A stretch of DNA of 64,000 nucleotides from an uncultured Methanosarcinales archaeon. GTDB lineage: Archaea; Nanobdellota; Nanobdellia; Woesearchaeales; GW2011-AR4. This document shows positions 1-48,213 of the stretch, piece after piece. Position 1 is the first letter of the stretch, and each line of letters starts with the position of its first letter. The notes beneath the pieces are model-generated. The model saw only the letters and a program-made list of their open reading frames with translations. It was not told where the DNA came from and ran no database searches. The position numbers and the translations under genes are program-made. Location: assembly GCA_964438385.1 (NCBI GenBank), contig CAYTKI010000028.1, positions 6,521-70,520 on the forward strand, in the 5' to 3' direction.

Positions 1-75
1 ACCACCAGAATACCACAAAGAGGATAATGACCATCGCCCCGATTAGCTCGAACGCGCCAGAGATAGCTTTTTTTT

Positions 76-744
76 TTAGCATGATGGAATCTTTGAAGGT
101 ATATTTTTGACGCAGGAATCTCTGATTCCTTCCTTGGTGTATGCGCACCAGAATAGCCAGGATTGCGCGACAGGGATGAAGCAAGAGTTTCCTTCATCAT
201 TTATATACAGATAGGGTGCAATGGTCTCTTTTGTGAACGTGCGCGATGTGATGGGGGAAGTTATCTTTTGATTGGGCGGGCAGGATGCCTTATCTTTTAA
301 CTTACATTCATAGAACAATGTGGGGTCCGCAAGGCATAATTTTCCCTTGGATGAAGTTCCCGAATGGCGCAGGAGTGCTTTTCCTTGCTTTTCTATGATG
401 GTGAAAGTCACTTCCCCTCCTGATTCGCTAGATTCTATCTCATAATCACCGAGATTATTAAGACCTTCAAATGGGATGATGCAGTCTTTCTTTGCGTTTC
501 CTGAAACACCCTTAAAGGATTCTACAAGAGTGTTGCTGCTTTTGGTTACACTCTCAGGAACGGTGCTCTGGTAGGCAATTTGAGGGGATGGCTTGAGGGG
601 GAGGAATTTATCCACTCCAAGAAGAGTCTTTGCGATTTTTGGCGTGAGACCAAGCTCCGGGGCAAAAAAAGTGATGGAAACCAGGATGAAGACGATGAGC
701 GCGATGATAAGGAGCGCGATGGTTGAGAGTGAAAGTCTTTCCAT
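76..744 (-). CDS. hypothetical signal-anchored extracellular protein
   Basis: 222-aa ORF; N-terminal hydrophobic helix (IALLIIALIVFILVSITFF) then soluble Cys-containing domain; last gene of long minus-strand surface-protein locus. Confidence 0.5.
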   Translation of the reverse strand: MERLSLSTIALLIIALIVFILVSITFFAPELGLTPKIAKTLLGVDKFLPLKPSPQIAYQSTVPESVTKSSNTLVESFKGVSGNAKKDCIIPFEGLNNLGDYEIESSESGGEVTFTIIEKQGKALLRHSGTSSKGKLCLADPTLFYECKLKDKASCPPNQKITSPITSRTFTKETIAPYLYINDEGNSCFIPVAQSWLFWCAYTKEGIRDSCVKNIPSKIPSC

Positions 745-890
745 GCCTTACCACCAATTAAAGAGAAGAATTTCCACTCCACTATCCTTGAATTGAATAT
801 ATGCATAAAATGCTGCGCCGATGAGCAAAATACCAAGAAGGATTTCTATCACTAGCCATATCCCATCCACCGCCTTCTTTCCTTTGATTC

Positions 891-1997
891 TCATCTGCTT
901 GCTTGGATACTGCATTTGCTTGAAATCGCGTCATATCTTGAGATGAAGATGCGATTGTGATCATCGAAGAATGTGCTGCCCGCGGTTTGGTAGAGCGCCG
1001 CAGATTCTGTGGTGAGGAGGATTGCGATGGGAATTATTCCTATGCCAGTACCAATTGCTGCTGCGATGACAGCGCCTCCCAGAACCGAGGTTGCTGCTCC
1101 CGCAGTGGTCTTGAGCCCATAGGTCTCAGTTGGGCTTACGAAAGTTACCGCATATAATTGTTTTGATACGAGCGGATCCTCTGTAGTAAAATAGCCCACT
1201 CCAACGCCTACACCTTTCATTCCCTGGATATAATCAAGATAGGATGCTGAGCGATCAAGAGGCACATAGCAGTTGCCTGCAGGACATTTCCATTGCGAAA
1301 AATATGCTCCATCTTTTTGAAAATCGGATGAGCAGGTTCCTCCCTTGCTCTTGCATTCATTGCCGGGGATTGTGCAGCAAGTGCTTCCCTTCTGGCATCG
1401 TGAGGAAGAAACTGGTTGCTCTCCTTGAAGACAGGGTTTGGATGTTCCGCTCCTGCACCACCCTCCTCCTCCTGGACCACATTTGTCTGATGAGTCGATG
1501 GTTTCATAGGGCTGAGCCATGGATCTGTAAACTTCCTCCTTAGCGCCAAGGGGGGCGGCACCGTTATCAAGAAAGAAAGTGTAACAGATAAAGCATCCAT
1601 CATTTGAGAGCGGGAACTTTGAGAACATGTTGCGCTCCCTTCCCTCAAGCCACATCCACCAGCATTTTCTACTCAGATCCCTGATTTCTCTGAGCGCCCC
1701 TTCTTTAAGTGTCCCTCCTTGTCCCCTATATCCCTTGGTTGGAAGGGCGTCTTTTTTTTCTATGGTTGCGCAGGCTCTGGGAGCATTAATTGCCTGGGTC
1801 ACCACCCCTAACTTTTCCTGGGCTCCGAACCTGATCGCATTGGATGATCGGCACAATGCTTCCTTTGAGGACTCATCTGCCTTTGATGCGCTAAGCGCAA
1901 TGAGGTAAATCACAAGAAATGTTCCTCCAAGGAGGAGAACAATACCTACCACAAACTGCCACCCTCCTTCTCCTTCTTTTGAATTCTTGAGGTTCAT
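891..1997 (-). CDS. hypothetical Cys-rich membrane protein (N- and C-terminal TM helices)
   Basis: 368-aa ORF; TM at N-term (FVVGIVLLLGGTFLVIYLIAL) and near C-term (GGAVIAAAIGTGIGIIPIAILL); many Cys (CQKGSTCCTIPGNECKSKGGTC). Confidence 0.5.
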   Translation of the reverse strand: MNLKNSKEGEGGWQFVVGIVLLLGGTFLVIYLIALSASKADESSKEALCRSSNAIRFGAQEKLGVVTQAINAPRACATIEKKDALPTKGYRGQGGTLKEGALREIRDLSRKCWWMWLEGRERNMFSKFPLSNDGCFICYTFFLDNGAAPLGAKEEVYRSMAQPYETIDSSDKCGPGGGGWCRSGTSKPCLQGEQPVSSSRCQKGSTCCTIPGNECKSKGGTCSSDFQKDGAYFSQWKCPAGNCYVPLDRSASYLDYIQGMKGVGVGVGYFTTEDPLVSKQLYAVTFVSPTETYGLKTTAGAATSVLGGAVIAAAIGTGIGIIPIAILLTTESAALYQTAGSTFFDDHNRIFISRYDAISSKCSIQASR

Positions 1998-2120
1998 TTG
2001 CTTAAAGCATCCTTTTTATAAAAAAGAAAAAGACCACTGCTAAGAATATTCCGGTCAACCAGACAAGAAGGGGTTTTGATAGAAACAATTCCTGTCCTTT
2101 CCTTGAGGAAGGGATAGGGC

Positions 2121-2381
2121 TCATGGAGCAAAAACTCCCTGAACGCAGCAAACTTTATTGTCTTTCTCACAATTGGTATTGGACAAGATAGTGTATCCTT
2201 GCTTGCCGCATTCTGATGTCCCAACGCACTTTCCAAGCTTTGCCTGACAGCTATCGATGTTTGAAGAGAAAGATTTTGCCTCACTGGTGAATATCACTGC
2301 GACCGTGATCAGCACGACAAAGGCAAGGATAGCCCCTATGAGGATTGGTATCGCCATGTCTGCCTTCTTGTGGTGGAACAT
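2121..2381 (-). CDS. small Cys-rich membrane-anchored protein, possible pilin-like
   Basis: 86 aa; short basic N-term (HHKKAD) followed by hydrophobic helix, C-terminal Cys cluster; overlaps alternative ORF 1994..2284 which looks non-coding. Confidence 0.4.
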   Translation of the reverse strand: MFHHKKADMAIPILIGAILAFVVLITVAVIFTSEAKSFSSNIDSCQAKLGKCVGTSECGKQGYTILSNTNCEKDNKVCCVQGVFAP

Positions 2382-2418
2382 GGGGAAAAACTGAAGAAAT
2401 CTATATATAAATCTTTGG

Positions 2419-2727
2419 CTAGCGGATGCAGCAGCAGATTCCCGGGGAAGTCTCGGTTATGTCGCTGAACTGGCCATAAATCCTAACGGAGTTGGCTGCT
2501 GAGCACGTTTGGCCGCTTCCTTTTTCTCCAGAAGTGTATCCGCTCACCTGACACTGCTGGCCGCAGCCGGTCAATTGCTGCTGCGTCTGATCTACATTCT
2601 TCCCAAAGATCCCAATCCTCCCTGTAAAGACTGCAAAGAGAACGACTAGGACGGCAAGCCCAAGAGCCGCAATAATAATGGTATTAATTGAAAGGCCCTG
2701 ACCCTTCGTGGAAATATAGGATTTCAT
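2419..2727 (-). CDS. type IV pilin-like protein with class III signal peptide
   Basis: 102 aa; N-term MKSYISTKGQ|GLSINTIIIAALGLAVLVVLF = basic residue-G-Q followed by hydrophobic stretch typical of archaeal prepilin-peptidase substrates. Confidence 0.5.
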   Translation of the reverse strand: MKSYISTKGQGLSINTIIIAALGLAVLVVLFAVFTGRIGIFGKNVDQTQQQLTGCGQQCQVSGYTSGEKGSGQTCSAANSVRIYGQFSDITETSPGICCCIR

Positions 2728-2898
2728 GGAACCATTCCTGAATATGCTGATATTTAAAAGTATCGGAATTCATCGCCCTATCGGATTTATCGGCAAGGGT
2801 GCGTGGAGGGCATAAAAATCCAGGTAAAGCGCGCTCAGATTGTACCCTCCCTGATTATTTTTTGCTGAGTTAGGGTAATGTTATTTTAATGAAGATTT

Positions 2899-3354
2899 TT
2901 ATCCGCAGATATCAAGCTTCACAAACATCGTCCCTGCACGCGTAGGCAGGGGGAATGTCTTTGAGCGCTTCTGGCCAGGACATGCTTGACCAAGCTGCAT
3001 AAGCGTTCTGCTGGTGCCAAGCGAGGCAGTCATCTCATACTTCCATTTCCACTGCTCAAATGTCTTGGAAAATATGGCTGCCGCAACTTCGCGCGCCTTC
3101 TCGCAGGAGGATTTTCCATCGGAGCATACTATGCCCCCCTGCACCGCGCAGTCCTGCAAAAGTTCGGTTGCTGTCAGGTAATTGCAGTCATTGACCGCGG
3201 TATTGAGATAGGTGGATACATAGTTGGAGGCGACCTGCGATTCCACAACTTCCTTGCGTATTGTGCTTGGCTTCTTCAAAGCGATGAATTTTATCGCGAA
3301 CACAAGGCCAAGGACAAGGAGGACTACAACAATTGCAAGTCCGAGGATCTCCAT
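2899..3354 (-). CDS. hypothetical N-terminally anchored membrane protein
   Basis: ORF 2899..3954 trimmed to internal Met (MEILGLAIVVVLLVLGLVFAIKF) because upstream 200 aa are R/S-rich low-complexity and overlap gene 3527..4015. Confidence 0.4.
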   Translation of the reverse strand: MEILGLAIVVVLLVLGLVFAIKFIALKKPSTIRKEVVESQVASNYVSTYLNTAVNDCNYLTATELLQDCAVQGGIVCSDGKSSCEKAREVAAAIFSKTFEQWKWKYEMTASLGTSRTLMQLGQACPGQKRSKTFPLPTRAGTMFVKLDICG

Positions 3355-3526
3355 TTGTGCTTTTCTGGAATGGCGATTTCTGGTGGGTGCGCTTGCGGTG
3401 ATGAAAGTGTGGGTGTGTGGAGGGCATCGTTTGCACATAAAGCGCATCCGTGTGGTTCCTTCCCTTAATTTTTTAATAGTCATTGTGGTGATTAGTGAAA
3501 TGTCGCCCGGTTTTCGTGTCCGTTCT

Positions 3527-4015
3527 TTATCTCGCATACGTCTCAATGGTGATGACACCAAAAGCGCTCCTATCCGTGATGGGATCGAGGAGCGAGATGG
3601 GAGTGTTGCTTGCTGATTTTGAAGTAAATCCCTGCAAAGGAGAGGAGTAAAGGGTATAGTCTCTGGCAGTGGGATAGACTTCCTTAACAGTAATTGTGCT
3701 GAAGCCGAGGATGTCAAAATAGTATTCCTTGTGCTGCGGCATGAGAATAGCCGCCGAACGCAGCTTGATGGTGTCAATGCATGAATCCGTGATGATGTTC
3801 TGCCTGCTGCACTGCAGTTCCGGAAGTGAGAGCGCCTTCTTGAGCACAGTGATGGAATCCAGCTGCACATGCTCATCTTTCTCCGTTGCCGCCTTGGATT
3901 TAAGGATGTTGACATAGAACACCATGCCGATGACCACCAAAAAGAAGAACACAAGTAGGATTGCGATGGTTTCTCCCATCTGCACCTGCCCTCTTGATTT
4001 TTTTGCGCTTTTCAT
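3527..4015 (-). CDS. type IV pilin-like protein with class III signal peptide
   Basis: 162 aa; MKSAKKSRGQ|VQMGETIAILLVFFFLVVIGMVF : RGQ motif, Glu at +5, long hydrophobic helix. Confidence 0.5.
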   Translation of the reverse strand: MKSAKKSRGQVQMGETIAILLVFFFLVVIGMVFYVNILKSKAATEKDEHVQLDSITVLKKALSLPELQCSRQNIITDSCIDTIKLRSAAILMPQHKEYYFDILGFSTITVKEVYPTARDYTLYSSPLQGFTSKSASNTPISLLDPITDRSAFGVITIETYAR

Positions 4016-4105
4016 TTTAAATTTAATTTGATAGTAAAGTATTTCAGTGTGATTTTAGTTTAATGGGGTCTTTTTTTATTGGCAGGGTTCTCACTTGCTT
4101 TCTTT

Positions 4106-5161
4106 TTAGTAAATAAGCGGGCAGGACTGCCTCTGGAGTTGTGAATTGAGGTTCTCAAGCTCAGAGATGGCATGGTTGGCCTGTTGAACAGTCCCTTCAT
4201 TAAGGACAATAGCTGCCGCCCGGATAAGGGAGAATTGAGATAATGCCTGCGTATAGGTCTGCTGGCATCTGAGCAGGCCTGCGGAAGAGGAAAGCTCCTC
4301 AGATCGGCGCTGGTAAATTTCTGTCACCAGAGCGACTTTTTTGAGCATGTTGTCTGCGATGCATTTGTAGAAGAGGTCTTCGCTATTTGATGCAGGCCTG
4401 GATTTTTCATCGCTATAGATTGCGCCAAGGAGCATTTCCTGCCTCAGGTAGGGATAGGTCTTTGCCAAGTCCCATCTGGATTCGATTTTCCTATAGAATG
4501 CGGCTGTTCCTCCGCTCAAGTCCCCGTTCACGCCAAGTGCGCTCATCTTGTTATTCTCGATTGTTGCGAACGATGGAGGAAATGTGGGAAGTGTGTCAAA
4601 AAAAATAAAGCGTGTGTGGTCGTCCTGCTCGGGACGCAGATCTTGGGGTAATATGGAGTGGAGTTCTACCCGTAATGAAGAATGCATGCTCTTATTCACT
4701 GCCCGCGCAAGAGGGGAATTTCCAACGAGGATGTAGCGTATTTTTGGGGAGGATATGTACACCACATTTGTGACGCGGTAGGGGATGCTCCATTCCCTTG
4801 TCTGCACGATGAGGGGGGAAGTGCGGACAACCGATGGCGCAAAAAGCATCATCTGTTGGAATTGCTGTGATTGGCTCCCGATACGCAAAAGGTTGCATTC
4901 AAATTCAATCGTCGCCTGGGGGAGCTCAAGGATGTTGGTTACTCCAAAGGACGCTTCAGAGCCGATTGCTATTGTGCTAAGAGTCTTAAGCAGCGTCGCG
5001 TGGGAAGAGACTTCAGAGATATTTTTTTGCTTGATGACAATCGTCGCAAACAGGGTGAGGATGGCTGCGCCTGCAATGAGGATGAATATCCAGTTGAACT
5101 GCACCTCAACCACTGCCTTCTTGCCAAGAAGGCGTCTATTGCCAATTCGAGAGGAGAACAT
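4106..5161 (-). CDS. hypothetical N-anchored extracellular protein (possible pilin-like)
   Basis: ORF 4106..5314 with start moved to MFSSRIGNRRLLGKKA|VVEVQFNWIFILIAGAAILTLF; exact start uncertain (overlaps upstream gene). Confidence 0.4.
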   Translation of the reverse strand: MFSSRIGNRRLLGKKAVVEVQFNWIFILIAGAAILTLFATIVIKQKNISEVSSHATLLKTLSTIAIGSEASFGVTNILELPQATIEFECNLLRIGSQSQQFQQMMLFAPSVVRTSPLIVQTREWSIPYRVTNVVYISSPKIRYILVGNSPLARAVNKSMHSSLRVELHSILPQDLRPEQDDHTRFIFFDTLPTFPPSFATIENNKMSALGVNGDLSGGTAAFYRKIESRWDLAKTYPYLRQEMLLGAIYSDEKSRPASNSEDLFYKCIADNMLKKVALVTEIYQRRSEELSSSAGLLRCQQTYTQALSQFSLIRAAAIVLNEGTVQQANHAISELENLNSQLQRQSCPLIY

Positions 5162-5630
5162 GGTCACCTTTGCCCTCAAGCCTAAGTTCAACGGCATTAT
5201 TGTGCGGTTCGATGCAAAGGACATCAAGTGGGAAAATAGCAATTGACTCGACAGTGAAGGATGCTTCAACGGTATTGGTGAGTAAAAACACATTCTTTCC
5301 AGTTCCAGAGGCAATGCTGTCCCGAATCAAGGGGTCAATTGTGAGTCCATCAAGAGAAGGGGTGGTGTGGCTCTCTACAAAGCAGATGCGGGAATATCCC
5401 TCCACGCGAAGCTCTATTTTTTTAATCGAGCCGAAGTCTGATGAAAGAGCATCAATTGCAGAGGAAAGTTCTGATTGCAGCTTGATTGCGGAAACTTGTT
5501 CCGATTGCCTGCGGAAATCGCTGATTGCATTGTAGCCGTAGATTAGGATGGCCCCCATGATGACGATGCCAAGGACATAGATAAAGACCTGCCCGACAAT
5601 CTGTGCGTTTCTTGTGGAGGGTAGTTTCAT
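5136..5630 (-). CDS. pilin/FlaF-like N-anchored protein with class III-like signal
   Basis: 164 aa; MKLPSTRNAQ|IVGQVFIYVLGIVIMGAILIYG then beta-rich soluble domain; 4-nt overlap with stop of the giant gene upstream suggests translational coupling. Confidence 0.45.
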   Translation of the reverse strand: MKLPSTRNAQIVGQVFIYVLGIVIMGAILIYGYNAISDFRRQSEQVSAIKLQSELSSAIDALSSDFGSIKKIELRVEGYSRICFVESHTTPSLDGLTIDPLIRDSIASGTGKNVFLLTNTVEASFTVESIAIFPLDVLCIEPHNNAVELRLEGKGDHVLLSNWQ

Positions 5631-8600
5631 GATTTCTTTCCGGGTTGGGTGATTTTTGTGATGGGATCTTTTGGGTTGTTTTTCATTTTTCCCGGTTTTG
5701 ATTGTGCAGCGCCTTTTTCTTTTGGCAGATTCTGCGCCGATCGCTGATGCTTCAGTGATTTGAGCATTTCAAATGCGTCTTTTTTTTGGAGTATTTTTTG
5801 CTGCGGCTTTCTGATGCGGATGATAATCTTTCTTTTTTGAGGTGTTTTGCTTTCCGGTTTTTGCGCTTCTTGCGATTGCTTCCCGGGCATGTCGCTGCTC
5901 ATCTTTTCCAGATGTTCTGGCTGTTCAGTTTTGTGGGAGAAGATGCTGAAGATGTTTTCTCGTTCATTTCTTTCCTTGTCGTGCTTTTCTTGTGATTTTT
6001 CCTTGATCATCTCCTTTTTCTGCTCGGTTAGCTCCGCACTCTGGCGTGCGATTGGCGCCTGCTCCGTGCGCTCTTCAGGCAGGGGCGGCAACGGCTGCTG
6101 TCCAAAAGTGGAAAAATCAGTGGATGATTGCTTGGAATTGTTAAGGTAATAGCGCGCATAGGCATAATATCCGCCTGCCCCAAGAATGCCTAAGACGAGA
6201 AGCCCAATGAGGATGCCTTTAACAGATGAAGGAGGGTAGTCATTTGGGTCAAGCGGATTTGTTCCGGCATCAATTTCATCCCCATCAGTTGCTCCATCTC
6301 CATCAGTGTCTGGGTTTAAGGGGTCTGTAGAGAATGAGAACTCTTTTCTGTTGGTCAATCCATCGGAATCAGGGTCTTCTTCTCCAAGATTGGGATTGTT
6401 TACATCAAAGCCGTGCTCAATAGCCCATTGGATGAAGGAATCTGCCGATGTGCCGCTTTCAGTGTCAGTGACTCCATCGCAATTGGTGTCGTCCGTTGAG
6501 CAGATCTTGCACGTTCCCTGCCTGCATTCAAGGCCCGCGACGCAGTCCCCACTGGAAATGCATCCGTCCCCCTGCCCGCATCTCTTTTCGCAGGTTCCTC
6601 CGCAGTCGACTCCCACTTCTCCTGGAGAGAGCTTGCCATCTGCGCACTCTTCCATTGGCTTGCAAAACCCGAAACTGCAGGATTGTTCACCACAGTCCTT
6701 GTTCTCGCGGCAACGCTCTCCTTCTCCGCACGCCTTGCAGGTTCCTCCGCAGTCGACTGCAGATTCTTCCTGATTTGTTATGCTATCAGAACATGTTGCA
6801 GCAGCGCATTTCCCGAGATTGCAGAATCCACTCCCGCAGTCAGCGCTTGCTGTGCAATTGGCTCCGGTGGCGCAGTCTCCCCGGTCATTGCATCGTAAAT
6901 TCAGGCTTTCGTTTGAGAGGCAGCCATCTGTGGTGAGCCGGCATACTCTGCAATTGAGCGTGCCATTGAGGAAATAGGGGCTGTAGCCGCGGCAGCTGAT
7001 ATCGCTGATGTTTCCAATGGTGTTTCCATCGCATAACTCCCCAATATCCAGCTTGCCATTGCCGCAGGGATCATCCTGGGAAGTTCGGCATTCTTTGGTG
7101 TTAAGCTTGCAGGAACTGCAGGAGATTTTTCCAGTTTTGAAGGAAGGAGTGTAGTCTGCGCATTGTAGTGGAATCGGGCCAAGGGTTGCTCCTTCGCAGG
7201 ATTCTCCTGCATCGATGATGCCGTTGCCGCAGCTTGATACTTCAATGCAGCCGGAAGTATTGAGTGCACACCCTTGGCTGCATGATATGGTTCCTCCGGT
7301 GAAGGAGGGATAAGCTGTGCAACTGGCAATGGTGCCAAACGCAGTGCCATCGCATTCTTCGTCCTTGTTGAGCGATCCATCTCCGCAAAGCCCGGCAGAA
7401 GTGTCTTGGCACCCTGAAGTGTCTACGTGGCAGTTAGTGCACTTCAGTGTTCCTGAGGTAAAGCGCAGTGGACTGTAAGAGGTGCAAGAGCCATCAAGAG
7501 GCCCAAATGAATTTTTGTCGCAGGATTCTCCTGCATCGATGATGCCGTTGCCGCAGGCAGCTTTTTCAGTGCAGGAAGTGGTATCAAGTTCGCAGGAGGG
7601 GGTGCAGCCAATTGTTCCTGAGCTGAAAGATCCATTGTATGAGGAACAGCTTGTGATTTTGCCGAATGTTGTCCTGTCGCACGCTTCGCCAGGATCCAAA
7701 ATGCCATTCCCGCAGCGGGATTCTGGATTGCAGCCGGAAGTGTCTATTCTGCACTGGGGCGAGCATTTCAGGGTACCGGAAGCAAAATTGGAGTATTGGG
7801 TGCATCCCTTGATAGTGCCAAAAGTAGTTCCATCGCATTCTTCTCCTGCTGTATTGATATTGCCGTCACCGCATTTCGCGGATTGGAGGCATAGCGATGT
7901 ATCCACAATGACGCCATCGCTCAGAAGCGGCTGACTTTCAAGGTCCACAAAATCTTTGGCCTTCACCTTAAACACATACTTAGTGTTATCTTGGAGGGAG
8001 AGGTTTTTGACAAAAAGGAACTCGTTTGAGACTAGGGCTCTTGTGAAACCGACAATTTCAGTGCTTCCTTGGAGCAGGGAATAGAAATACTCCCGAACAC
8101 CGCTGCCTCTGTCTTCAGCCAGCCATTTCACCCTCAGCCGGTCGGTAAGGCAGCTCTGCTGGGGCAGGGACTCAAAAGTGCTGGAATCATCCACAAAAAG
8201 CATGGAAGGTGGCTGGGTGTCAACGGTGAAGTTGACTACAATCGCGGGGGAGAAGGTAGTGAGGGACTGATCCCTGCATGCGACAAAAAAGGTATAGTGA
8301 CCATCATCCAGCGCAAGAGTTGTCGAATGCACAAGTGCCGGAGGCCCGAAAAGCGAGCCGGAAACTGCAGTCCTATCGGTTTGGCTGAATCTGCATTGCA
8401 TTGTCTTGCTTGTTTTCACAAGGAGCTGAGTAGCCGTCTTGCTTATGATGGAAGGGGTAAGGGAAGTGATAAGCGCGGGAAGGGTGTGATTGACGGTGAA
8501 AAAAATGTTTTGGGAAGGTGAGATAAGCTGTGCCTTATTCTGGCAAGCGACAAAGTAAGTGTATTTTCCATCACCGCCCTCAGTAACCCGTTGCCTGCTG

Positions 8601-11600
8601 ATTGTGCTGAAATTTGAGGAAACGAAAGAGTCGAACGGAATCATTTGCGCAAAAAGGGGGTTTGTCCTGCTGTATTTGCAGATGGATTCATCATCGGTCT
8701 GCACCGTGAGTGAGGTGCTGTTGTCTTCATCCTGGATAGGATTAGGGAAGGCAAATGAGGTGATGATGAAGGGAGAGGTGTTGTCAAAAGAGAGTGTAAA
8801 AGATGAGGTTTTCTGCCCTTGGAGGATATCATTGCAGGTGACAAATAATGTCACTTGGGAGGGGAAAGCGCCGGAAAATGCTGCAAGCTTGTGCTCGGTG
8901 CCTCCGCTTGGTAAAAATGGTTCCATGAATTGAAAATCAGCTTTGGATCCGATGCTGTGCCTGCACTGTGCGTCGTTGTCTGTTCCCACAATCACATCAA
9001 AGGAGCGCTGCGCAGAGACGCCATAGGGAGGGGAAATTAGTGTGATTTCAAGGGGCCTTGCATTCATGACAAAATAAAGGGGGATTGTTGTGGTGATGCC
9101 TGCGAATGATGTGGCAGTTATGAGCATGAATTTGTTGCCGTCGCTGATATTGACGCTTGCGCTGTAAACCTTGTTATTAAGGGTGGTGAAGTTTTTTGAG
9201 AAGTCCTTGCCATCTATCCACACACTCGTAAGGATTGCCTCCCGTGCAAAGCCAAGAGAGAATGATGCTGATGAAAAGCGGAGAAGCGAGCCATTTGCAG
9301 GGGTGCTGTTGAGAATCCTTGGCGGCTTGCTGTCCACAACAATTGTTTTGGAAAATAAGGGACTCATGAACACCCCTTCTTGGTTTTTTGCATTGATTTC
9401 AAGAGTGTACTCTCCGTCTGGTATGGGAGAAGTGAAAGTGAGCCGTGTTATTGTTTGCTCTGAAGCGCTAAAAGATGGTTGGAACCGATCACCAGTTGCC
9501 GGGTTCTTAAGCTGAGCAAAAGTGATGATTGCCGGCTCCAGGAAAATTATTTCTGCAGTGGAAACTCTTCCGGCAAAAAGTGCATCAAAGTGCTCTGTTG
9601 CTCCGGGAATTGAAAGATTGCCAACTATTGGGCCGGTGGAGGTGCTAGGCGCAGTAAAGGTGATTGATTTTATTTCTCCTACGTTTTTTGAGGGATCGCG
9701 TGAATAGTACTTCAGTGTGTTCTCTCCGGGAGTGAGGTTCATGATGTTCTTGAGTGTGTTTTTGTCAAAGAGCTTGCGGTTGGAATAAAGCAATGTTTGG
9801 GAAGTTGTTGAAATTCCGAAGGGATGGTTTATTGGGCAGGCATTCTTGCAGAGAAAGGTTTCATAATCAGGCGTTGTCCGTAGCGCAAGGGCGCCATTTG
9901 GGCCTGCCTTGTCCCGAATGTCCATGCGGATCTGATTCAGGCTGCCATTCGAGATGATGGCCACAAATGAAGTGTCAGGTGGAAAAATGTCTGCTTCGCA
10001 TGAGGCAATGGAGCAATCAGCATTGCCATCGGCATCTGCGTCTTTTCTGCATTTGTTGCTGAATTTTCTGCACATGTCTGCTCCGCATTGGATTCCTCTC
10101 GGCACAAGTTTGTTATTTGTGGAGAATTGTACAGGGGTTGATGGGCAGTTTGCGGCAATGATGTCTGTACATATAACAGCATCGCAGGTTTTGGCAGAGG
10201 TGCCGGTAAAAATGCATTGTGCCAAGGGCGTGGAGAGCTGATCTGCCTTTTCCTTGGTGCATCCCCCATATACTTTGTTATGCGCCCTATTGGATTCCAT
10301 TCCTTCTGTACCTGACTTGTCGCACCACACACAATTTTTTTCCTGCATGGTGATGCATGCCCCAACGCCAAGCTCTGTGGAGATGGTTTTCCATTGGCAG
10401 TTGCTCACACCGCAGTTGTCCCTCCCACATGTTCCCTGCGATTTATAATCGTAGCAGTTCATTTCCGGCTTGCATGCATAGCAGGCATCGATGGGAGATG
10501 TGGATTTGTCATAGAAGCAGTACTTGCCATTCTCGCATGCCAATTCAAAGCCAAAGAGCTGAAAAGCGTTGAAGCCCTCCTGCTGGCACTTATCCGTTGG
10601 CACGCATGTGGGCACGCTTCCCTTGACAATGCACGCCTCTTCAGGAGAGCAGGATACGCCGGCATACTGCAGGACATTTGCTGAGTCGCAGGAGAATCCT
10701 TTGTTTATCTTTGAGGAGAATTTCCCCCTCACTTCGCTTATGAAATTGGCAGTGGAAAAATTAAGTGGAAAATTGATGATGAGGTAGTCCTTTGAGGCAA
10801 GATAGGTGGATGGCTGCACGCAGAATTTCTCAAAAGTTGATTTGCCCAGGCATTCGATATTTCCAAGTGATGCTGTTTTCTGGACTTGGGGAGTTGCGGA
10901 CCGGATGCTGTAATGCGCCCTCACTAAGTAGCTGTAATGGGTATCAAATAGCAGCGAGTCCGAGGAGTCGGTGAATGTTTGGGTAGAAGAGCTGCCGATG
11001 CGTGTGAAGGTTGTGCAGCCATCGCCAAGGCATCGGAAGATATCGTAGGAAAGCGAATTTTGACTGCACTCGTCTTGCCAGCTAAGCAGGAATTGTTTCT
11101 TGCCCTTCAGAGGTATGACTGAGAAGGCGCTTAGGGCAGGCACGTAGGTCGGATCAGAGCATCCCTGGCTGCTGCCTATGCAGATGCCATTTTCTTCCCT
11201 CGTGTCACTTGGGGAGACACACCCTGTATCTGAGCTGTCTGTGCATCCGTTGTTATCATTGTCAATGCCATCATTGCATTGCGGCGTCTGGCAGGACACT
11301 TGGGAGCAGGGATTGTTAAAAAATTCAGTTCCGGTGCCTGTGCAGTGCACTTTTGTTTTTGTTGATGGTCCGGATGGCTCGCAGCAGCATCCAATCTTGC
11401 AGGAATCAACGGCGTCGCAGGCGCTGTTTGCCAAAAAGAAGTTGGTTTCGCAGTCCTGCGCATTTAAGGGGTAACTGGGAAAACTTGCCGATTTGTAGAA
11501 AGAAGGGTTTGCTGTTTCCGGCTTTGGGCAGCAGTCCTGATCTTTTGAGACAAAGGATTGGAAGTTACATGTTGCGGCGATGCTCGCTCCCGGGTTAAAG

Positions 11601-11695
11601 CAGCATCCAGAGGCCTGTGCAATGGTAAGGGGAAGGATAAATGTAAAGAGAGTAGTGATGAGAAGCATCAGGCAAAGTGATTTTTTTGTGTCCAT
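5627..11695 (-). CDS. giant (2022 aa) type-I membrane surface protein with Cys-rich repeat array
   Basis: Sec signal peptide (MDTKKSLCLMLLITTLFTFILPLTIAQA); 6 tandem CG[DN]G...E.CD...FG...C repeats plus CGGTC modules; Asp-rich DPDSDG/DTDGDG calcium-binding-like motifs; single TM helix (ILIGLLVLGILGAGGYYAYARYY) at 6158..6223; Lys/Glu-rich cytoplasmic tail. Confidence 0.85.
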   Translation of the reverse strand: MDTKKSLCLMLLITTLFTFILPLTIAQASGCCFNPGASIAATCNFQSFVSKDQDCCPKPETANPSFYKSASFPSYPLNAQDCETNFFLANSACDAVDSCKIGCCCEPSGPSTKTKVHCTGTGTEFFNNPCSQVSCQTPQCNDGIDNDNNGCTDSSDTGCVSPSDTREENGICIGSSQGCSDPTYVPALSAFSVIPLKGKKQFLLSWQDECSQNSLSYDIFRCLGDGCTTFTRIGSSSTQTFTDSSDSLLFDTHYSYLVRAHYSIRSATPQVQKTASLGNIECLGKSTFEKFCVQPSTYLASKDYLIINFPLNFSTANFISEVRGKFSSKINKGFSCDSANVLQYAGVSCSPEEACIVKGSVPTCVPTDKCQQEGFNAFQLFGFELACENGKYCFYDKSTSPIDACYACKPEMNCYDYKSQGTCGRDNCGVSNCQWKTISTELGVGACITMQEKNCVWCDKSGTEGMESNRAHNKVYGGCTKEKADQLSTPLAQCIFTGTSAKTCDAVICTDIIAANCPSTPVQFSTNNKLVPRGIQCGADMCRKFSNKCRKDADADGNADCSIASCEADIFPPDTSFVAIISNGSLNQIRMDIRDKAGPNGALALRTTPDYETFLCKNACPINHPFGISTTSQTLLYSNRKLFDKNTLKNIMNLTPGENTLKYYSRDPSKNVGEIKSITFTAPSTSTGPIVGNLSIPGATEHFDALFAGRVSTAEIIFLEPAIITFAQLKNPATGDRFQPSFSASEQTITRLTFTSPIPDGEYTLEINAKNQEGVFMSPLFSKTIVVDSKPPRILNSTPANGSLLRFSSASFSLGFAREAILTSVWIDGKDFSKNFTTLNNKVYSASVNISDGNKFMLITATSFAGITTTIPLYFVMNARPLEITLISPPYGVSAQRSFDVIVGTDNDAQCRHSIGSKADFQFMEPFLPSGGTEHKLAAFSGAFPSQVTLFVTCNDILQGQKTSSFTLSFDNTSPFIITSFAFPNPIQDEDNSTSLTVQTDDESICKYSRTNPLFAQMIPFDSFVSSNFSTISRQRVTEGGDGKYTYFVACQNKAQLISPSQNIFFTVNHTLPALITSLTPSIISKTATQLLVKTSKTMQCRFSQTDRTAVSGSLFGPPALVHSTTLALDDGHYTFFVACRDQSLTTFSPAIVVNFTVDTQPPSMLFVDDSSTFESLPQQSCLTDRLRVKWLAEDRGSGVREYFYSLLQGSTEIVGFTRALVSNEFLFVKNLSLQDNTKYVFKVKAKDFVDLESQPLLSDGVIVDTSLCLQSAKCGDGNINTAGEECDGTTFGTIKGCTQYSNFASGTLKCSPQCRIDTSGCNPESRCGNGILDPGEACDRTTFGKITSCSSYNGSFSSGTIGCTPSCELDTTSCTEKAACGNGIIDAGESCDKNSFGPLDGSCTSYSPLRFTSGTLKCTNCHVDTSGCQDTSAGLCGDGSLNKDEECDGTAFGTIASCTAYPSFTGGTISCSQGCALNTSGCIEVSSCGNGIIDAGESCEGATLGPIPLQCADYTPSFKTGKISCSSCKLNTKECRTSQDDPCGNGKLDIGELCDGNTIGNISDISCRGYSPYFLNGTLNCRVCRLTTDGCLSNESLNLRCNDRGDCATGANCTASADCGSGFCNLGKCAAATCSDSITNQEESAVDCGGTCKACGEGERCRENKDCGEQSCSFGFCKPMEECADGKLSPGEVGVDCGGTCEKRCGQGDGCISSGDCVAGLECRQGTCKICSTDDTNCDGVTDTESGTSADSFIQWAIEHGFDVNNPNLGEEDPDSDGLTNRKEFSFSTDPLNPDTDGDGATDGDEIDAGTNPLDPNDYPPSSVKGILIGLLVLGILGAGGYYAYARYYLNNSKQSSTDFSTFGQQPLPPLPEERTEQAPIARQSAELTEQKKEMIKEKSQEKHDKERNERENIFSIFSHKTEQPEHLEKMSSDMPGKQSQEAQKPESKTPQKRKIIIRIRKPQQKILQKKDAFEMLKSLKHQRSAQNLPKEKGAAQSKPGKMKNNPKDPITKITQPGKKS
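6920..7876 (-). repeat. in-frame tandem array of ~48-54-aa Myxococcus-type cysteine-rich repeats (aa 1274-1592 of giant protein)
   Basis: Repeats begin CGDGNINTAGEECDG, CGNGILDPGEACD, CGNGIIDAGESCD, CGDGSLNKDEECDG, CGNGIIDAGESCE, CGNGKLDIGELCD; near-identical nucleotide stretches e.g. 7190-7230 vs 7519-7560. Confidence 0.8.
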
Positions 11696-11746
11696 TTTTT
11701 TTGTGATGGTGCTGATGGTTCTTGAATAGTATGTAGGAATTTTAAA

Positions 11747-12949
11747 TTAAGGGGTGAAAGGGTTTCTGATAATGAAAATGTCCTGGTAATCTTCCAGTTC
11801 GCCATCAGACGCGGTGATGCGCACCGTCATATCGGGAGTGGTGATTGTCTGTGGCAATTGCGGCTTGCCGCTCCTGCTCTCAACGGTGAATTGGTAGGAT
11901 ATGGAATCTTCATCAGGGTCGTCTGCGGCCGGTGCCAGAAGGTAGGATGCGAGCAGTTCCTTGGTGATTTCCGTGTTGTGGGAAAAGTTGAGCTTGCCAA
12001 AAGAGAGGTAGTGGAATGTTTGGTTTGGCTTAAGGTAGTGGAGCGCGGGGTTGCGGTTATGGCGCGCAACATGGATTTCATAGGGCTTACCGCTGATAGA
12101 GGATTGGGTATCTTTTAGAATGAGGATATCATCATGGTTGTGTACATCATGGAGTATTGCAAGGGACATGTCCTGCGGAGCGTTTACCTTGGAAATGTTA
12201 AGCAAGATGTCATTCACTTCGTTATTCAGGATGGAAGAGAGCGCGGTATGCATGCCAAGAAGGCGTACGCCGTATATCGTCTTGAATTCCTGGAGGGAGA
12301 TTTCCTCTTGGGTGATGGAATTTGAGATGGTGAGGGGATAGGAAAGTGTGATGTCCACAGTCTGCTCGCCGAATGCCGCATGGGTGGATTTTTCTCCCTT
12401 GGAAAAAGAATATCCTTGCTTCTCAAAGAATGCATAATCGATGCAGGAATCTATTGCAGAGGAGATATACTGCTCAAGCTGGTATGCAAAAGATGAGCTT
12501 GAGCCGTTGATTGGAGGCAGGAGCACTGTGCCTAATGATATGCCTGGCGTTGGTTGATCTGGTCCATAAGGTGCGGAAGTGGTGGGGTATGCGGGCAACA
12601 AAACAAGCCCAGGTGAAATACCATAGTTCACCTTCTGTCCCTGAAATGGAGCGAAGAGTGCGCCGGCATGAAAATCAATTGGATCGGCAAAGATTCCCCC
12701 TTGGTTTCGATAAATGATTCCGCCTTGATCTCCCAATAGTTTGAGTGCATCGGCTGAGGTGGAATCAAGGCATGTGGTAATGTGCTGGATGATTGGTTTC
12801 ACTTCCGAAGTGGTTGTCTGCGTCTTGGTCATTTCCTGTGTGGTGCGCTTTGTGATGGCTGATTTGCCGATGGAAAATCCGATAGTGATCATGAGCAAAA
12901 GCGCAATGCCAAGGATGATGGCAATCGTTGCCTGTGATGTGCGGGCCAT
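11747..12949 (-). CDS. hypothetical N-anchored extracellular protein
   Basis: 400 aa; MARTSQATIAIILGIALLLMITIGF anchor then Thr-rich linker; 7-nt gap to upstream gene (operon). Confidence 0.6.
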   Translation of the reverse strand: MARTSQATIAIILGIALLLMITIGFSIGKSAITKRTTQEMTKTQTTTSEVKPIIQHITTCLDSTSADALKLLGDQGGIIYRNQGGIFADPIDFHAGALFAPFQGQKVNYGISPGLVLLPAYPTTSAPYGPDQPTPGISLGTVLLPPINGSSSSFAYQLEQYISSAIDSCIDYAFFEKQGYSFSKGEKSTHAAFGEQTVDITLSYPLTISNSITQEEISLQEFKTIYGVRLLGMHTALSSILNNEVNDILLNISKVNAPQDMSLAILHDVHNHDDILILKDTQSSISGKPYEIHVARHNRNPALHYLKPNQTFHYLSFGKLNFSHNTEITKELLASYLLAPAADDPDEDSISYQFTVESRSGKPQLPQTITTPDMTVRITASDGELEDYQDIFIIRNPFTP

Positions 12950-12956
12950 TGGTTCT

Positions 12957-15239
12957 CTAGGAGATACGCACTTTTGAAGTCAGGTCCGGCCATACTTGCT
13001 CTGGTTGGAAAGTTGTTAAGCCGCCGCCTTGCAGCAATAGGCGGTAAGTTTGCCCTGTTTTCACGCATTCAATGCCTGCATTTGTTCCCCCAAGCTGCTG
13101 GGTGAATTGGCTTGCAAACTCGCAGATGTTGATGTCGTTGAAGTTGGAGTATTCAATTGTGGCATGGTCCCCTTGCAGGACTCCAAAGATGCGTTTCCCG
13201 CCTTGCTCTGTGATGTAGAGCCGCTGGAATTTTGCACTCTGGCCTTCGAAAGAGGGAAGGGAAAATGATGAGGATTGTAATCTTTGCCTGAGTGCAAAGA
13301 GGAGGGCATCTAACGGGTCTTTGAGAAATGAGGCAAAAAAGGACTGTGTGCTCTGTGAATTGATGGAAAGGGAATTTTTGCCGTAAATAGCGGACTCCAA
13401 TTTTTTGTTGTACCAGAGCGTGCCTGAAGTGTCACATTTGTGGTACTGCCCATCATCCTGCTGGGCTCCCGAGCAGCTCTGCACAGAAAAAAGGTCGAGT
13501 GTAGCGGCAGAGGTAAGGGGGGTGTTGAAGCTTGCGCCAACGGCAATGTTATTGTTTTGCTGCAGTACGCAGACGTTATTCGCATTTGTTCCAAAATACA
13601 GCGATGCCTGCTTTCCCGATGGAGTGAGATAGTCAAGTAAATTGAGTGTATTCTCTGTCTTATCGCAGAAGAGAGTGTAGCTGCCTGAATTTTTCGAGGA
13701 AAGAAGTGTAAGTGCTATCTGAGCGGTCCGGCTGGACCAATCCCCCGAAGAGCAGTAATCATCCTTGATGAATTGTTGGGAAGCGATGCACTGTGGGTTC
13801 TTTGTAGGGTTGTTATTGTCTGCGGCATTGCCCGATGGGTTAACCATGCATTGGGTGGCATTGGGGCAGTAGCCCTCTGCCTCTCCGTTGATGGTTTTCT
13901 TCGGTACGGCAGTTATCCAGTTGCCCGCCATACAGCGGAAATCAGGGAGCGCATTTTCTGATGTAGGGTGGGGTGATTGGTCATCAATGCAGCTCTGCCC
14001 GTCCCAGCATTGCGAGGGCGCGCAGCATTCTGATTGGGAAGTTGAGTTTGTGTTGGGTACCTGAACTGGTGAAGTCTTGAATGATGAGCGATCCTTCCCT
14101 CCAGTCGCCATCCATTTTTCCCTAAAAGAGCAGTAGTAGCTCTTGTCGGGGTCATTTGTGCAATAGGGATCATCAGCAACAAGAATCTGGGATGTGTGCT
14201 TATCCGAAAGCGAGAGATAGGCGTTATTTTGGGAATTGTAATTACTTTTTGAGATGGCGCACCCATGAAATTTTCCATTGAAATTAACGACATCGTGGAC
14301 AGCATCGACAAAATTGATGCTGATCACAGGCTTTGAATTCCAGCATCCTCCGGTCTGGTCGTTATAGTATTCATGCGGATCATCTGCCTCGCTGCAGCAT
14401 TTTGTCCCGGTCCATGTGAGGTTTGCCGGATTCCCATCAGGAGTCTTCGCATTCTTGCAGCTCTGCTCATCTTTGGTGTCAAGATCAGTGGTGAAGGTGC
14501 GATCTGTTGCGCAGTAATGGGTTACTCCAGAGACGAGTGCAGAACCCCCTGCCGATAGGCGCTTGCCATTGGTCTTTGAATAGCAGGCAGCTGAGCCGCA
14601 GCATTCAATGAGGGATCCTTGCCCTCCTTGGCCGGTGCAGAGGTATTCATGCGCTGGGCTCCCTATGGGGCGCTTTGAAAAGGATGCGCAGTCTATCCAT
14701 GCGGTATTGTCAAGCACCTTCTCCTTGTTTTGGCAGCCCACAAAAATGATATCATTTTTGCTGCTTGAGGGAATCAGCCAGCGCGCAGACCTGCCTTCTG
14801 CATCTATTGCGCACAGGGCATTCTTGCTGAGCATGCCGCAGTCTGAGGAATCATCTCCGCAACAACGTTTTGCGGCATCTGCCTGTGAGTCAAAATCAGC
14901 TCCATCGATGCAGCCGCACGCGCCAATGTTATCATCTGGGTTGGTGATTTTTGCCTCATCGAGGCTTTTTGTGGCCCGTGCGGTGCAGCCGCCGGGGATA
15001 TAGGCGCTCTCTGATAAAAAATAGCTGAAAGTCTCAGCAGTCAGGCTGCCAGATTCCGCCTTATTGCCAAGAGAGTCATAGCATCCTGCCGGCTTGTTGA
15101 CGCAGTCCGGTGGGGGGGTTGGAGGGGATTTCGGGCTTGAGGAGAAAGCAGAGGCGGATGATGAGACAAGTACAAGCAAAGTAAAAAGGAATAATGATAA
15201 GGTGAATGTACTGAGAAGTATGGTATTAATCTGTTTCAT
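12957..15239 (-). CDS. secreted Cys-rich protein (760 aa)
   Basis: Classic signal peptide ...LVLVSSSASA|FSSSPKSPPTPPPD; >50 Cys; TATA-like tttaaatac ~40 nt upstream. Confidence 0.65.
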   Translation of the reverse strand: MKQINTILLSTFTLSLFLFTLLVLVSSSASAFSSSPKSPPTPPPDCVNKPAGCYDSLGNKAESGSLTAETFSYFLSESAYIPGGCTARATKSLDEAKITNPDDNIGACGCIDGADFDSQADAAKRCCGDDSSDCGMLSKNALCAIDAEGRSARWLIPSSSKNDIIFVGCQNKEKVLDNTAWIDCASFSKRPIGSPAHEYLCTGQGGQGSLIECCGSAACYSKTNGKRLSAGGSALVSGVTHYCATDRTFTTDLDTKDEQSCKNAKTPDGNPANLTWTGTKCCSEADDPHEYYNDQTGGCWNSKPVISINFVDAVHDVVNFNGKFHGCAISKSNYNSQNNAYLSLSDKHTSQILVADDPYCTNDPDKSYYCSFREKWMATGGKDRSSFKTSPVQVPNTNSTSQSECCAPSQCWDGQSCIDDQSPHPTSENALPDFRCMAGNWITAVPKKTINGEAEGYCPNATQCMVNPSGNAADNNNPTKNPQCIASQQFIKDDYCSSGDWSSRTAQIALTLLSSKNSGSYTLFCDKTENTLNLLDYLTPSGKQASLYFGTNANNVCVLQQNNNIAVGASFNTPLTSAATLDLFSVQSCSGAQQDDGQYHKCDTSGTLWYNKKLESAIYGKNSLSINSQSTQSFFASFLKDPLDALLFALRQRLQSSSFSLPSFEGQSAKFQRLYITEQGGKRIFGVLQGDHATIEYSNFNDINICEFASQFTQQLGGTNAGIECVKTGQTYRLLLQGGGLTTFQPEQVWPDLTSKVRIS

Positions 15240-31177: not shown

Positions 31178-31508
31178 CCCACCACTTCCTATGGAAAATA
31201 AAAAATACTCACATTCCCTTCATTTTTCTAACAAAAAAAACAACAAAAAACCCTTATTATTATTATTTTCTATATAGATAAATTATTATTATTATTAAAA
31301 ATAAAAAAATAATAAAAAACACCTCCAAAGGAAATGATGGTGTAACACTATCACTATTAATAATAAAAAACACACACCAAATCAACCATTAAAAAATCCA
31401 CCACAAAGAAAAAGAGAGGAATAAGAAAGGTGGTGGACAGCACCATATATTCTCACCCAAACAAAAAGCAGCATATACTTTTAAATAAACAAAGCCGTTC
31501 ATTTCATT
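31178..31508. other. candidate replication origin (oriC) upstream of cdc6
   Basis: Non-coding, strongly AT/purine-skewed; (TTA)4 tracts at 31255-31267 and 31283-31297; mini-ORB-like cTTCCtaTGGAAAa (31186-31198) and cTCCaaaGGAAAt (31323-31335); 8-bp inverted repeat TCCACCAC/GTGGTGGA (31397-31404/31430-31437). Confidence 0.4.
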
Positions 31509-44464: not shown

Positions 44465-44778
44465 AAACCCAACTTAAAATTAACTAAGGTGAGTAAGTTA
44501 GCAGTTATTTTTATGCCATATAGTAATACCAGCAACGAAATCCAGATTAAATCTCTAGTGACTAACTTCTCCTTTTTTCCAATATATATAAAAATAATTA
44601 TTCCTAAAATAAAGAATAAAACTGGTAAATAAAAGACGAGTGAAGAAAATAAAAAGAAAAGATTCAGATCGCGAAGGAAAACCTCTATACCATAGTTCAA
44701 ACCTATAAAATCAAAAAAAACCATAAGTGTTAATAGGATTAAAATTAAAATCTGAATTTTTTTGTTCATCATTTCCAT
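44461..44778 (-). CDS. small hydrophobic membrane protein
   Basis: 105 aa, 3 predicted TM; very AT-rich; 31 nt downstream of methyltransferase gene on same strand. Confidence 0.35.
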   Translation of the reverse strand: MEMMNKKIQILILILLTLMVFFDFIGLNYGIEVFLRDLNLFFLFSSLVFYLPVLFFILGIIIFIYIGKKEKLVTRDLIWISLLVLLYGIKITANLLTLVNFKLGF

Positions 44779-44809
44779 AGAATAACTACCAGATATAACA
44801 ATATATAAA

Positions 44810-45622: not shown

Positions 45623-45706
45623 CAGATCCCAGACATTTAAAGTGACTGGTATTTATACTGATGTGACCAGATTGTGACCTAAGTTACGCAATCCTGTAAC
45701 ATAGAT

Positions 45707-46477: not shown

Positions 46478-46512
46478 GACTCTTCTTCTGGGATATTTCT
46501 TAATAAACCTTC

Positions 46513-47184: not shown

Positions 47185-47214
47185 CTTTAAACCCCCATAC
47201 TCGCTGATGTGTAT

Positions 47215-47274: not shown

Positions 47275-47295
47275 CAGGAAAACAGCCAGATTCCC

Positions 47296-48135: not shown

Positions 48136-48213
48136 CAACCAAGTTTTCTTTGTGTAGCTGATAGCTTATCTCCCAGAAAAACCTTTAAATACACTTCCCC
48201 CAACCAGCAAATC

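Follow-up and report, generated by a model that had tools for sequence, protein, structure and literature searches.

A collinear cluster of pilin-like genes in Woesearchaeota that probably encodes the parts of a surface filament or contact device

Introduction

What is built by a long run of co-directional genes that encode small membrane proteins of no recognisable family, together with two very large Cys-rich proteins? The question is raised by one end of a 64,000-nucleotide (nt) stretch of archaeal DNA (GenBank assembly GCA_964438385.1, contig CAYTKI010000028.1, positions 6,521 to 70,520 of the forward strand), which is deposited as from an uncultured Methanosarcinales archaeon and is placed by GTDB in the Woesearchaeales. 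This whole stretch is called the window here. A preliminary description of the window had pointed to pilin-like starts in some of the small proteins and to an attachment or cell-contact appendage, and had found no pilus assembly genes beside them. Two issues therefore have to be considered: (i) whether the small proteins begin as type IV pilin precursors do, or with ordinary secretion signals or membrane anchors; and (ii) what the genes could encode together if the machinery to assemble a pilus is located elsewhere. Our answer, to which we assign a probability of about 0.62, is that the products of the cluster are structural subunits of a surface organelle resembling a type IV filament.

Results

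Coordinates refer to the window, in which the cluster genes lie on the minus strand. Twelve complete genes and the start of a thirteenth occupy positions 1-15239, and the cluster continues beyond the left window edge. A Logan contig (L001) that overlaps this edge adds g0 (96 amino acids, aa) and gm1 (232 aa), both with the type of N-terminus described below, and synteny with related loci adds h1-h5. The whole cluster is ~25 kb long and comprises 17 protein families, represented by ~19 genes here, and about two thirds of it lies inside the window.

For comparison, we used 80 loci around g7 homologs from GTDB genomes and three contigs encoding specific homologs. Queries for local searches of the fetched loci were the window proteins, one by one, and the downstream genes of one related locus (L003). 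The cluster is present in 82 of 85 fetched loci, from ~80 species, in the collinear order g11-g10-g9-g8-g7-g6-g5-g4(1-5 copies)-g3-g2-g1-g0-gm1-h1-h2-h3-h4-h5. The related loci come from 170 species-level genomes of the Woesearchaeota/Nanoarchaeota group. The core g8-g7-g6-g5 is found in 67-82 of the 82 loci (g8 in 67, g5 in 76, g6 in 77), g9 in 72 and g3/g4 in 60. Counts for the outer genes are lower (g2 47, g0 36, g10 34, g11 22), mainly because the fetched flanks end. One border of the cluster is formed by RNase P p30/TBP/MCM, as in the window, and the other by an RPA-like gene; this placement and the gene order are held across ~80 species at 25-40% identity. The cluster is part of the core genome and not an island.

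Homologs number 161 for g7, 91 for g4 and 24 for g6, and a g7 profile retrieves 2117 clusters at 50% identity among 1.84 billion representatives. Because homologs exist and their order is collinear in related loci, the window open reading frames (ORFs) are real genes. This applies to all eleven minus-strand ORFs that the preliminary description had listed, which are present as described; that list omitted the short g1b and the start of g0 at position 82 within the window, as well as gm1 and h1-h5 outside it, so that roughly a third of the cluster was missed, and with it around half of the pilin-like genes. Homologs with a named source are all from 'Candidatus Woesearchaeota', 'Nanoarchaeota' or 'Nanoarchaeia' (DPANN), in agreement with the suspected affinity to uncultivated archaea. 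The other genes of the window include those for TBP, an intein-containing MCM, PolD DP1 and DP2, Cdc6/Orc1, RNase P p30, a tRNA-splicing endonuclease and Hjc, which mark it as archaeal chromosome. The source is thus a tiny-celled DPANN archaeon that belongs to the Woesearchaeota. Several GTDB records with the cluster (L009, L018, L019, L022, L024 and others) are titled 'uncultured Methanosarcinales archaeon', and one 'Dehalococcoidales bacterium'. Because the cluster is common to these records and this archaeal group, such titles are probably taxonomic mislabels of metagenome-assembled genomes.

In 14-15 of the families, the protein begins with a short basic leader that ends in [KR][GAS], often followed by Gln, directly before a conserved hydrophobic helix of ~20 residues. 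Such N-termini are seen in g3-g8, g0 and g1b of the window, in gm1 of the Logan contig, in g10 with Ser at position -1, and in h1-h4 of the related loci. Examples of the junction (marked by an arrow) are KKA↓D in g3, RKA↓Q in g5, KKA↓V in g1b and KKA↓I in g0, while g10 has TSQ here and KSQ in its homologs; Gln occupies +1 in g4, g5, g6 and g8 of the window. The family consensus shows the same pattern for g8, g7, g6, g5, g4, g3, g0, h1, h2, h3, h4 and gm1/x283, with KSQ in g10. Leaders often consist of 4-5 residues only, as in most g7 homologs (MNKKA). Almost every small gene of one related locus (L004) has …KKAQ, …KRGQ, …KKAM or …KKGD directly before the hydrophobic stretch, and KK[A/G]Q and related endings occur in nearly all small genes of L003, L004 and L005.

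The motif counted as present if [KR][GAS] stood among the residues that adjoin the first transmembrane helix on its N-terminal side, and 148 non-cluster ORFs with an N-terminal transmembrane helix from the same loci served as controls. It is present in 79-100% of the members in 14 families and in 68% of g10, compared with 36% of the controls (54/148). By family, the values are 100% for g7, g0 and h1, 99% for g4, 97% for g6, 96% for g3, 95% for g5 and h3, and 79-83% for g8, gm1, g2, h4 and h2; only 10% of g9 and 14% of h5 members have it. When Gln is included, [KR][GAS]Q is found in 97% of g6, 85% of g4, 74% of g8 and 55% of g3 members, and in 3% of controls (5/148).

The helix that follows is itself conserved. 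In g7 it reads E-x-Q-F-N-W-I-F-V-L-x-A-G-A-A-I-L-L-F-F in 120 homologs that have 30-40% overall identity, and in g6 it begins Q-x-x-x-x-E-T-I-A-[IV]-L-x-x-F-F. In g4 the N-terminal 35 residues are near-invariant among the 91 homologs (Q-[GS]-[IL]-S-I-N-T-I-I-I-A-A-x-x-L-x-V-L-V-V-L…F-T-G-R), and a hypervariable head with 5-6 Cys comes after them. Such conservation goes far beyond what a membrane anchor would need. By their signature, these N-termini are predicted class III (prepilin) signals, of the Methanococcus EppA/Epd type as judged from the +1 Gln, followed by type IV pilin alpha-1 helices. A Sec signal, with an h-region and then an AxA-type site, can be recognised by inspection in g9 and g11 only and not in the small proteins. 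The preliminary description had assigned class III rather than Sec signals to at least four small proteins. The assignment holds, with the motif placed before a hydrophobic segment of 20-25 residues and conserved across ~80 species, and the number was too low, since the motif is also present in g3, g5, g1b, g0 and g10.

AlphaFold2 models were obtained for two of the families. In the g7 model (predicted local distance difference test, pLDDT, 91.6; predicted template modelling score, pTM, 0.84; 61-sequence alignment), residues 21-70 form a helix and residues 75-239 a beta-rich domain, and a bundle of three helices makes up the C-terminal part. In the g6 model (pLDDT 84; 22 sequences), residues 7-62 are helical, and two shorter helices accompany an antiparallel sheet of four strands. 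Type IV pilins have in general a beta-sheet head on a continuous N-terminal helix of ~50 residues. The N-terminal helices of the two models measure 50-56 residues and carry beta-sheet domains, so that the models support a pilin identity in architecture but not beyond it. As modelled, the globular domains of g6 and g7 look new; the g7 model has no fold match in PDB or BFVD, and no viral fold match. The sole Pfam or NCBIfam match among the cluster proteins of the window is a TSP3 calcium-binding repeat in g9, the downstream cluster families have no Pfam match, and a match to NCBIfam BasB is noise (E = 0.066). As had been stated before, none of the cluster proteins has a characterised homolog in Pfam, NCBIfam or PDB or, for the g6 and g7 models, by Foldseek. 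Because pilin matches in Pfam, NCBIfam and PDB are lacking, pilin status rests on the motif and the predicted architecture.

The individual genes are listed in Table 1.

Table 1. Cluster genes and other features of the window. Arrows mark the predicted junction between leader and hydrophobic segment or, in g9 and g11, the Sec cleavage site.
Feature	Position	Strand	Description
g0	1..82	-	Start (27 codons) of a 96-aa pilin-like gene, MLKKKA↓ISGAFELIGAMVIILFVVF; continues beyond the left window edge (Logan contig L001)
g1	76..744	-	222 aa, 8 Cys; anchored by an N-terminal transmembrane segment; lacks a clear class III motif
g1b	748..915	-	55 aa, pilin-like, …RIKGKKA↓VDGIWLVIEILLGILLIG; called on Logan contig L001
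g2	891..1997	-	368 aa; N-terminal and second transmembrane helix (301-319) around a Cys-rich ectodomain, 16 Cys
Region upstream of g2	1998..2060		TATA-like box 25-32 nt before ATG
g3	2121..2381	-	86 aa, small, pilin-like, KKA↓DMAIPILIGAILAFVVL, Cys-rich head
Region upstream of g3	2382..2450		TATA box TTTATATA at -30; 25-32 nt before ATG
g4	2419..2727	-	102 aa; leader MKSYISTKG, then QGLSINTIIIAALGLAVLVVLFAVFTGR; the head that follows is variable, ~45 aa long and has 5-6 Cys
Region upstream of g4	2728..2800		TATA-like box 25-32 nt before ATG
g5	2899..3447	-	~182 aa; long leader ending RKA↓QMEILGLAIVVVLLVLGL; alternative start ATG 3483
g6	3527..4015	-	162 aa, pilin-like, SRG↓QVQMGETIAILLVFFF; conserved motif LPELQCS…C.D..KL
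g7	4106..5161	-	351 aa (363 aa from 5197); leader …GKKA, then VVEVQFNWIFILIAGAAIL, then a large globular domain
g8	5136..5630	-	164 aa, pilin-like, RNA↓QIVGQVFIYVLGIVIMGAILIYGY; KKAQ in homologs
g9	5627..11695	-	2022 aa, giant type I membrane protein, 121 Cys; Sec signal …LTIAQA↓SG
g10	11747..12949	-	400 aa; N-terminus MARTSQ↓ATIAIILGIALLL, KSQ in homologs; only 2 Cys
g11	12957..15239	-	760 aa, Sec-secreted, Cys-rich (38 Cys), signal …SSASA↓F; first gene of the cluster
Membrane protein gene	15265..16398	+	Divergent 377-aa protein, ~7 transmembrane helices; no Pfam match
MCM helicase gene	18271..21789	+	Split by an intein with LAGLIDADG homing-endonuclease domains (Pfam Intein_splicing, LAGLIDADG_3)
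Intergenic stretch	31178..31508		Very AT-rich, upstream of cdc6/orc1; PolD DP1/DP2 adjoining
Secreted protein gene	41279..44464	+	1061 aa, large, Sec-secreted, 40 Cys; MopE-type metal-binding motif, Vps62-like region
Possible defence or mobile island	42000..50100		Includes the four genes below and an RQC/HTH protein
DNA methylase	44810..45622		N6/N4 type
Restriction enzyme	45707..46516		DpnI-like
Bro-N domain protein	47209..48135		
Bro-N domain protein	49392..50048		
Overlapping adjacent ORFs	53100..55830	+	589 aa and 371 aa; both weak or partial peptidase M29 matches

g3 and g4 are paralogs (BLAST of g3 against g4, E = 3e-6); their profiles each find ~155 copies in the same 60 loci, most copies being matched by both, and a locus holds 2-5 tandem paralogs. 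The true start of g5 lies upstream of the called MEILGL, at ATG 3447 or 3483. The position of the g1 family between g2 and g0 is conserved. The weakest gene call of the cluster is g1b, for which phmmer finds no homolog in the related loci. Besides the boxes of Table 1, which lie at -30 of g3, at -31 of g4 and at -27/-25 of g2, TATA-like boxes are present 30 nt before ATG 3447 of g5 and at -46 of g11. The boxes of g3, g4 and g2 would imply separate transcription units, probably leaderless, inside the co-directional cluster.

The two large proteins are as the preliminary description had them in size and Cys content. The six repeats of g9, of the form CGNG..D.GE.CD and ~53 aa each, lie at residues 1275-1600, and its TSP3 calcium-binding repeat is matched by Pfam at residues 1796-1817 inside a wider region (1756-1817). 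About 1800 residues of g9 are extracellular, followed by one transmembrane helix (1824-1842) and a K/E/Q-rich cytoplasmic tail of ~180 aa. The gene is often duplicated and of variable size across the related loci. A second large secreted protein of the window, encoded at 41279-44464, has Cys-rich modules in common with g9 (34% identity over 90 aa, E = 7e-10).

In two related loci, the pilin-like N-terminus of h1 is fused to an N-acetylmuramidase (PF11860, Pfam E = 2e-34; L004 18336-21047 and L059 18844-21039). The full L004 fusion protein has 1459 aa, with an Amidase_2 domain further along. A wall-degrading enzyme on a pilin-like stem hints at interaction with bacterial cells as partners in these lineages.

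Other observations concern the surroundings of the cluster and the remainder of the window. The gene for a protein with about seven transmembrane helices adjoins g11, and none of the 82 related loci has a homolog of it near the cluster. The GTG at which this gene is annotated to begin is only 25 nt away from the start of g11 and probably lies too far upstream. The AT-rich stretch upstream of cdc6/orc1 is a candidate replication origin because it lies at the cumulative GC skew maximum; clear origin recognition box (ORB) repeats were not identified in it. GC content falls to 0.39-0.40 at 42-46 kb, and the restriction, methylase and Bro-N genes at 42000-50100 may form a defence or mobile island. 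The two overlapping ORFs with peptidase M29 matches may be a duplicated or frame-disrupted aminopeptidase gene.

Discussion

The properties of the cluster suggest that its genes probably specify the components of a surface filament or of a contact device, and a plausible scheme for the assembly of such a structure can be drawn from type IV pili. The precursors would insert N-in into the membrane, where an A24 prepilin peptidase of the FlaK/PibD/EppA type, encoded elsewhere, would cut after Gly, Ala or Ser. An ATPase of the FlaI/CpaF type and a platform protein of the FlaJ/TadC type, also encoded elsewhere, would then extract and polymerise the helices. The shaft would consist of the small Cys-rich g3/g4 paralogs, which are the best candidates for the major subunit because they are smallest (~80-93 aa when mature) and tandem, with the most conserved helix, the most variable head and their own TATA-like boxes. 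The larger pilin-like proteins (g5-g8, g10, g0, gm1 and h1-h4; 150-400 aa) would serve as a basal scaffold or as subunits of the minor, priming or tip kind. The membrane-anchored g9 and the secreted g11, which look like adhesins, would provide adhesion to a partner cell or surface. A function in attachment or cell contact is plausible. The earlier observation is thus supported as real and right in outline, and it understated the size of the system.

Several points weigh against a filament. To our knowledge, about 15 pilin-like families are far above the need of any characterised pilus. The second transmembrane helix of g2 is unlike a simple fibre subunit, and the C-terminal anchor and cytoplasmic tail of g9 are unlike a fibre subunit or a tip adhesin. 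At -1 the residue is mostly Ala, also Gly or Ser, where the Methanococcus pattern has Gly, and Glu is found at +3 (g5), +6 (g6) and +2 or +3 (g7) and not at all in g4, where Methanococcus has it at +5. Pilin or class III models of Pfam and NCBIfam (PF04021, PF07790, N_methyl) give noise-level scores for all members, profile searches of PDB sequences give no match to cluster proteins, and Foldseek links neither the g6 nor the g7 model to a solved pilin (best E 0.03 and 0.02, template modelling scores (TM-scores) <=0.31). Cleavage of the leaders and formation of a filament are themselves predictions. As for the machinery, T2SSE/FlaI, T2SSF/TadC and A24 peptidase domains are absent from the 50 ORFs of the window that were scanned, which cover every non-overlapping ORF of at least 120 aa, and in the 85 fetched loci (1.28 Mb) neither an ORF with a FlaI/PilB-type Walker A motif nor a polytopic membrane protein that recurs beside the cluster was found. 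The absence of ATPase, platform protein and prepilin peptidase that had been remarked for the window thus extends to the related loci, with none of them within 10 kb of g7 in 82 loci. Their separation is not disqualifying and not in itself remarkable, because archaeal pilins are often encoded apart from the machinery: in archaea, including euryarchaea, pilin genes commonly lie away from the ATPase/TadC operons (PMC4858521; also PMC3875500). Moreover, flaI, flaJ and flaK (PMC5994134) and CpaF/TadC loci (PMC11291902) have been reported in Woesearchaeota.

The same absence would fit a non-filamentous envelope complex, in which the hydrophobic segments would be uncleaved signal anchors of a fixed multi-subunit surface or S-layer-anchoring structure around g9, with no type IV machinery. 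At least 15 distinct families in strict order would suggest a defined stoichiometry rather than a fibre; the two transmembrane helices of g2, the C-terminal one of g9 and the lack of a pilin fold match point the same way, and the conservation of the transmembrane helices could come from packing within the membrane. A signal anchor, however, needs no small residue and Gln at the junction between basic and hydrophobic segments, where [KR][GAS]Q occurs in 74-97% of g8, g4 and g6 against 3% of controls. In addition, leaders down to 4-5 residues (MNKKA) are prepilin-like, and the predicted continuous helices of 50-56 residues would reach well past the bilayer. On balance we consider an envelope complex unlikely. 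Ordinary Sec-dependent secretion of the small proteins by class I signal peptides would be in keeping with the classical signals of g9 and g11 (an h-region, then AQA↓S or ASA↓F). In the small proteins, however, the conserved small residue precedes the hydrophobic segment, which is 20-25 residues long, continues into a long helix and has no AxA-type site; this reading is very improbable, and it is excluded by the position of the motif. Least credible is that the genes belong to an integrated mobile element or a provirus and specify proteins of its membrane or virion, a reading that the density of 'dark matter' and of small membrane proteins might bring to mind. The conserved order and placement between RNase P p30/TBP/MCM and the RPA-like gene, across ~80 species at 25-40% identity, exclude such an origin; the GC content of the cluster is similar to that of its flanks, there is no integrase and no viral fold match for g7, and neither patchy presence among close relatives nor attachment sites nor capsid genes were seen.

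A further possibility is a variant of the filament model. The class III signals would probably be cleaved, and in place of a long pilus the product would be a short periplasm-like scaffold, similar to a bindosome or pseudopilus, for the display of adhesins and enzymes on the cell surface. Class III signals occur on non-pilus proteins in Sulfolobus and have been proposed to do so widely in archaea (bioRxiv 10.64898/2026.04.22.720090). The fusion of h1 to N-acetylmuramidase in two related genomes would be catalytic cargo on a pilin-like stem, and the large 'minor' components are numerous. We regard this variant as distinctly improbable, however: substrate-binding or enzyme domains are absent from the cluster proteins of the window, the small, multi-copy and highly conserved g3/g4 resemble a polymerising subunit, and no Bas-like ATPase or platform protein is linked. 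The similarity to the Sulfolobus bindosome, formed by sugar-binding proteins and the Bas system, lies in class III signals on large non-fibre proteins, to which the L004 and L059 fusions may be compared; the cluster differs in its lack of substrate-binding domains and of a BasEF-like ATPase and platform.

If the filament model is adopted, the cluster would, by analogy of function, most resemble the Epd/'system 1' pili of methanococci and the bacterial minor-pilin/PilY1 operons. In bacteria, the fimU-pilVWXY1E operon, which is separate from the motor genes, groups several pilin-like proteins with an adhesin-like protein that is very large and binds Ca. Here too, a pilin-like set is combined with one giant Ca-binding adhesin-like protein away from motor genes. 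There is, however, no sequence or fold kinship, the number of pilin-like families is three times as high, and g9 is not soluble as a tip protein would be but is anchored near its C-terminus as a type I membrane protein, with a tail in the cytoplasm.

In Methanococcus maripaludis, the leader of Epd pilins is 5-13 residues long and has Gly as its last residue; Gln is at +1, which has been linked to processing by EppA, and Glu at +5. That organism has 14 class-3 proteins, with pilus genes distributed over at least four loci (PMC3875500). A 'system 1' type IV filament has also been reported in DPANN (bioRxiv 10.64898/2026.04.22.720090). Common to the Epd system and the cluster are the short basic leader with +1 Gln, the large number of class-3 proteins in a genome and the location of some pilin genes away from those for ATPase and platform. 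The size classes match as well: M. maripaludis has a major pilin of small size, minor ones of 130-156 aa and, larger still, pilin-like proteins of 200-299 aa. In contrast to Epd, the cluster has no DUF361/PF04021 match, its position -1 is occupied mostly by Ala, or by Ser, where Epd has Gly, and its Glu is not at +5. Its ~15 families stand in one collinear array, with giant Sec-type proteins embedded, and whereas the Epd operon has a dedicated peptidase, an ATPase and two platform genes, EppA, ATPase and platform are absent here.

Type IV pilus loci of DPANN have been described with CpaF/TadC and coiled-coil proteins (Hamm et al. 2024; PMC11291902), and 'dark-matter' pilins have been noted beside ATPase/TadC genes (Makarova et al. 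2019; PMC6393860). These loci belong to the same lineages, Woesearchaeota included, their diverged pilins are recognisable by signal peptides only, and a role in host interaction has been proposed for them. They are defined, however, by ATPase and TadC genes, both of which the cluster lacks, and no coiled-coil sigma-1-like proteins were identified in it. The literature that was searched, whose coverage is incomplete so that absence is no proof, holds no earlier description of a collinear 17-family cluster without an ATPase.

A more speculative scenario, doubtful but of a probability that is not trivial, is a contact machine specific to Woesearchaeota. A giant transmembrane protein would form its centre, and about 15 pilin-like subunits around it would complete a piston or stalk of the pseudopilus type for docking on a host. 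Lineages with the h1-muramidase/amidase would also breach the host wall. An assembly pathway that has so far escaped recognition would be conceivable in this case, because a type IV ATPase, platform or peptidase is never linked to the cluster.

Finally, the cluster bears on how these archaea may live. Few uncultivated DPANN archaea are as abundant as Woesearchaeota, whose genomes are tiny and which are believed to rely on partner cells. In a genome of ~1 Mb, a cluster of ~25 kb amounts to a few percent, and the retention of gene order across ~80 species implies an important, selected structure. The analysis supplies concrete candidates for its parts, namely g3/g4 for the fibre, g9/g11 as adhesins, and the h1-muramidase fusions. 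We suggest that the cluster would enlarge the repertoire of type IV filaments by ~15 protein families. Current Pfam and NCBIfam models miss all of these, and for two of them high-confidence models show folds that have no match in PDB.

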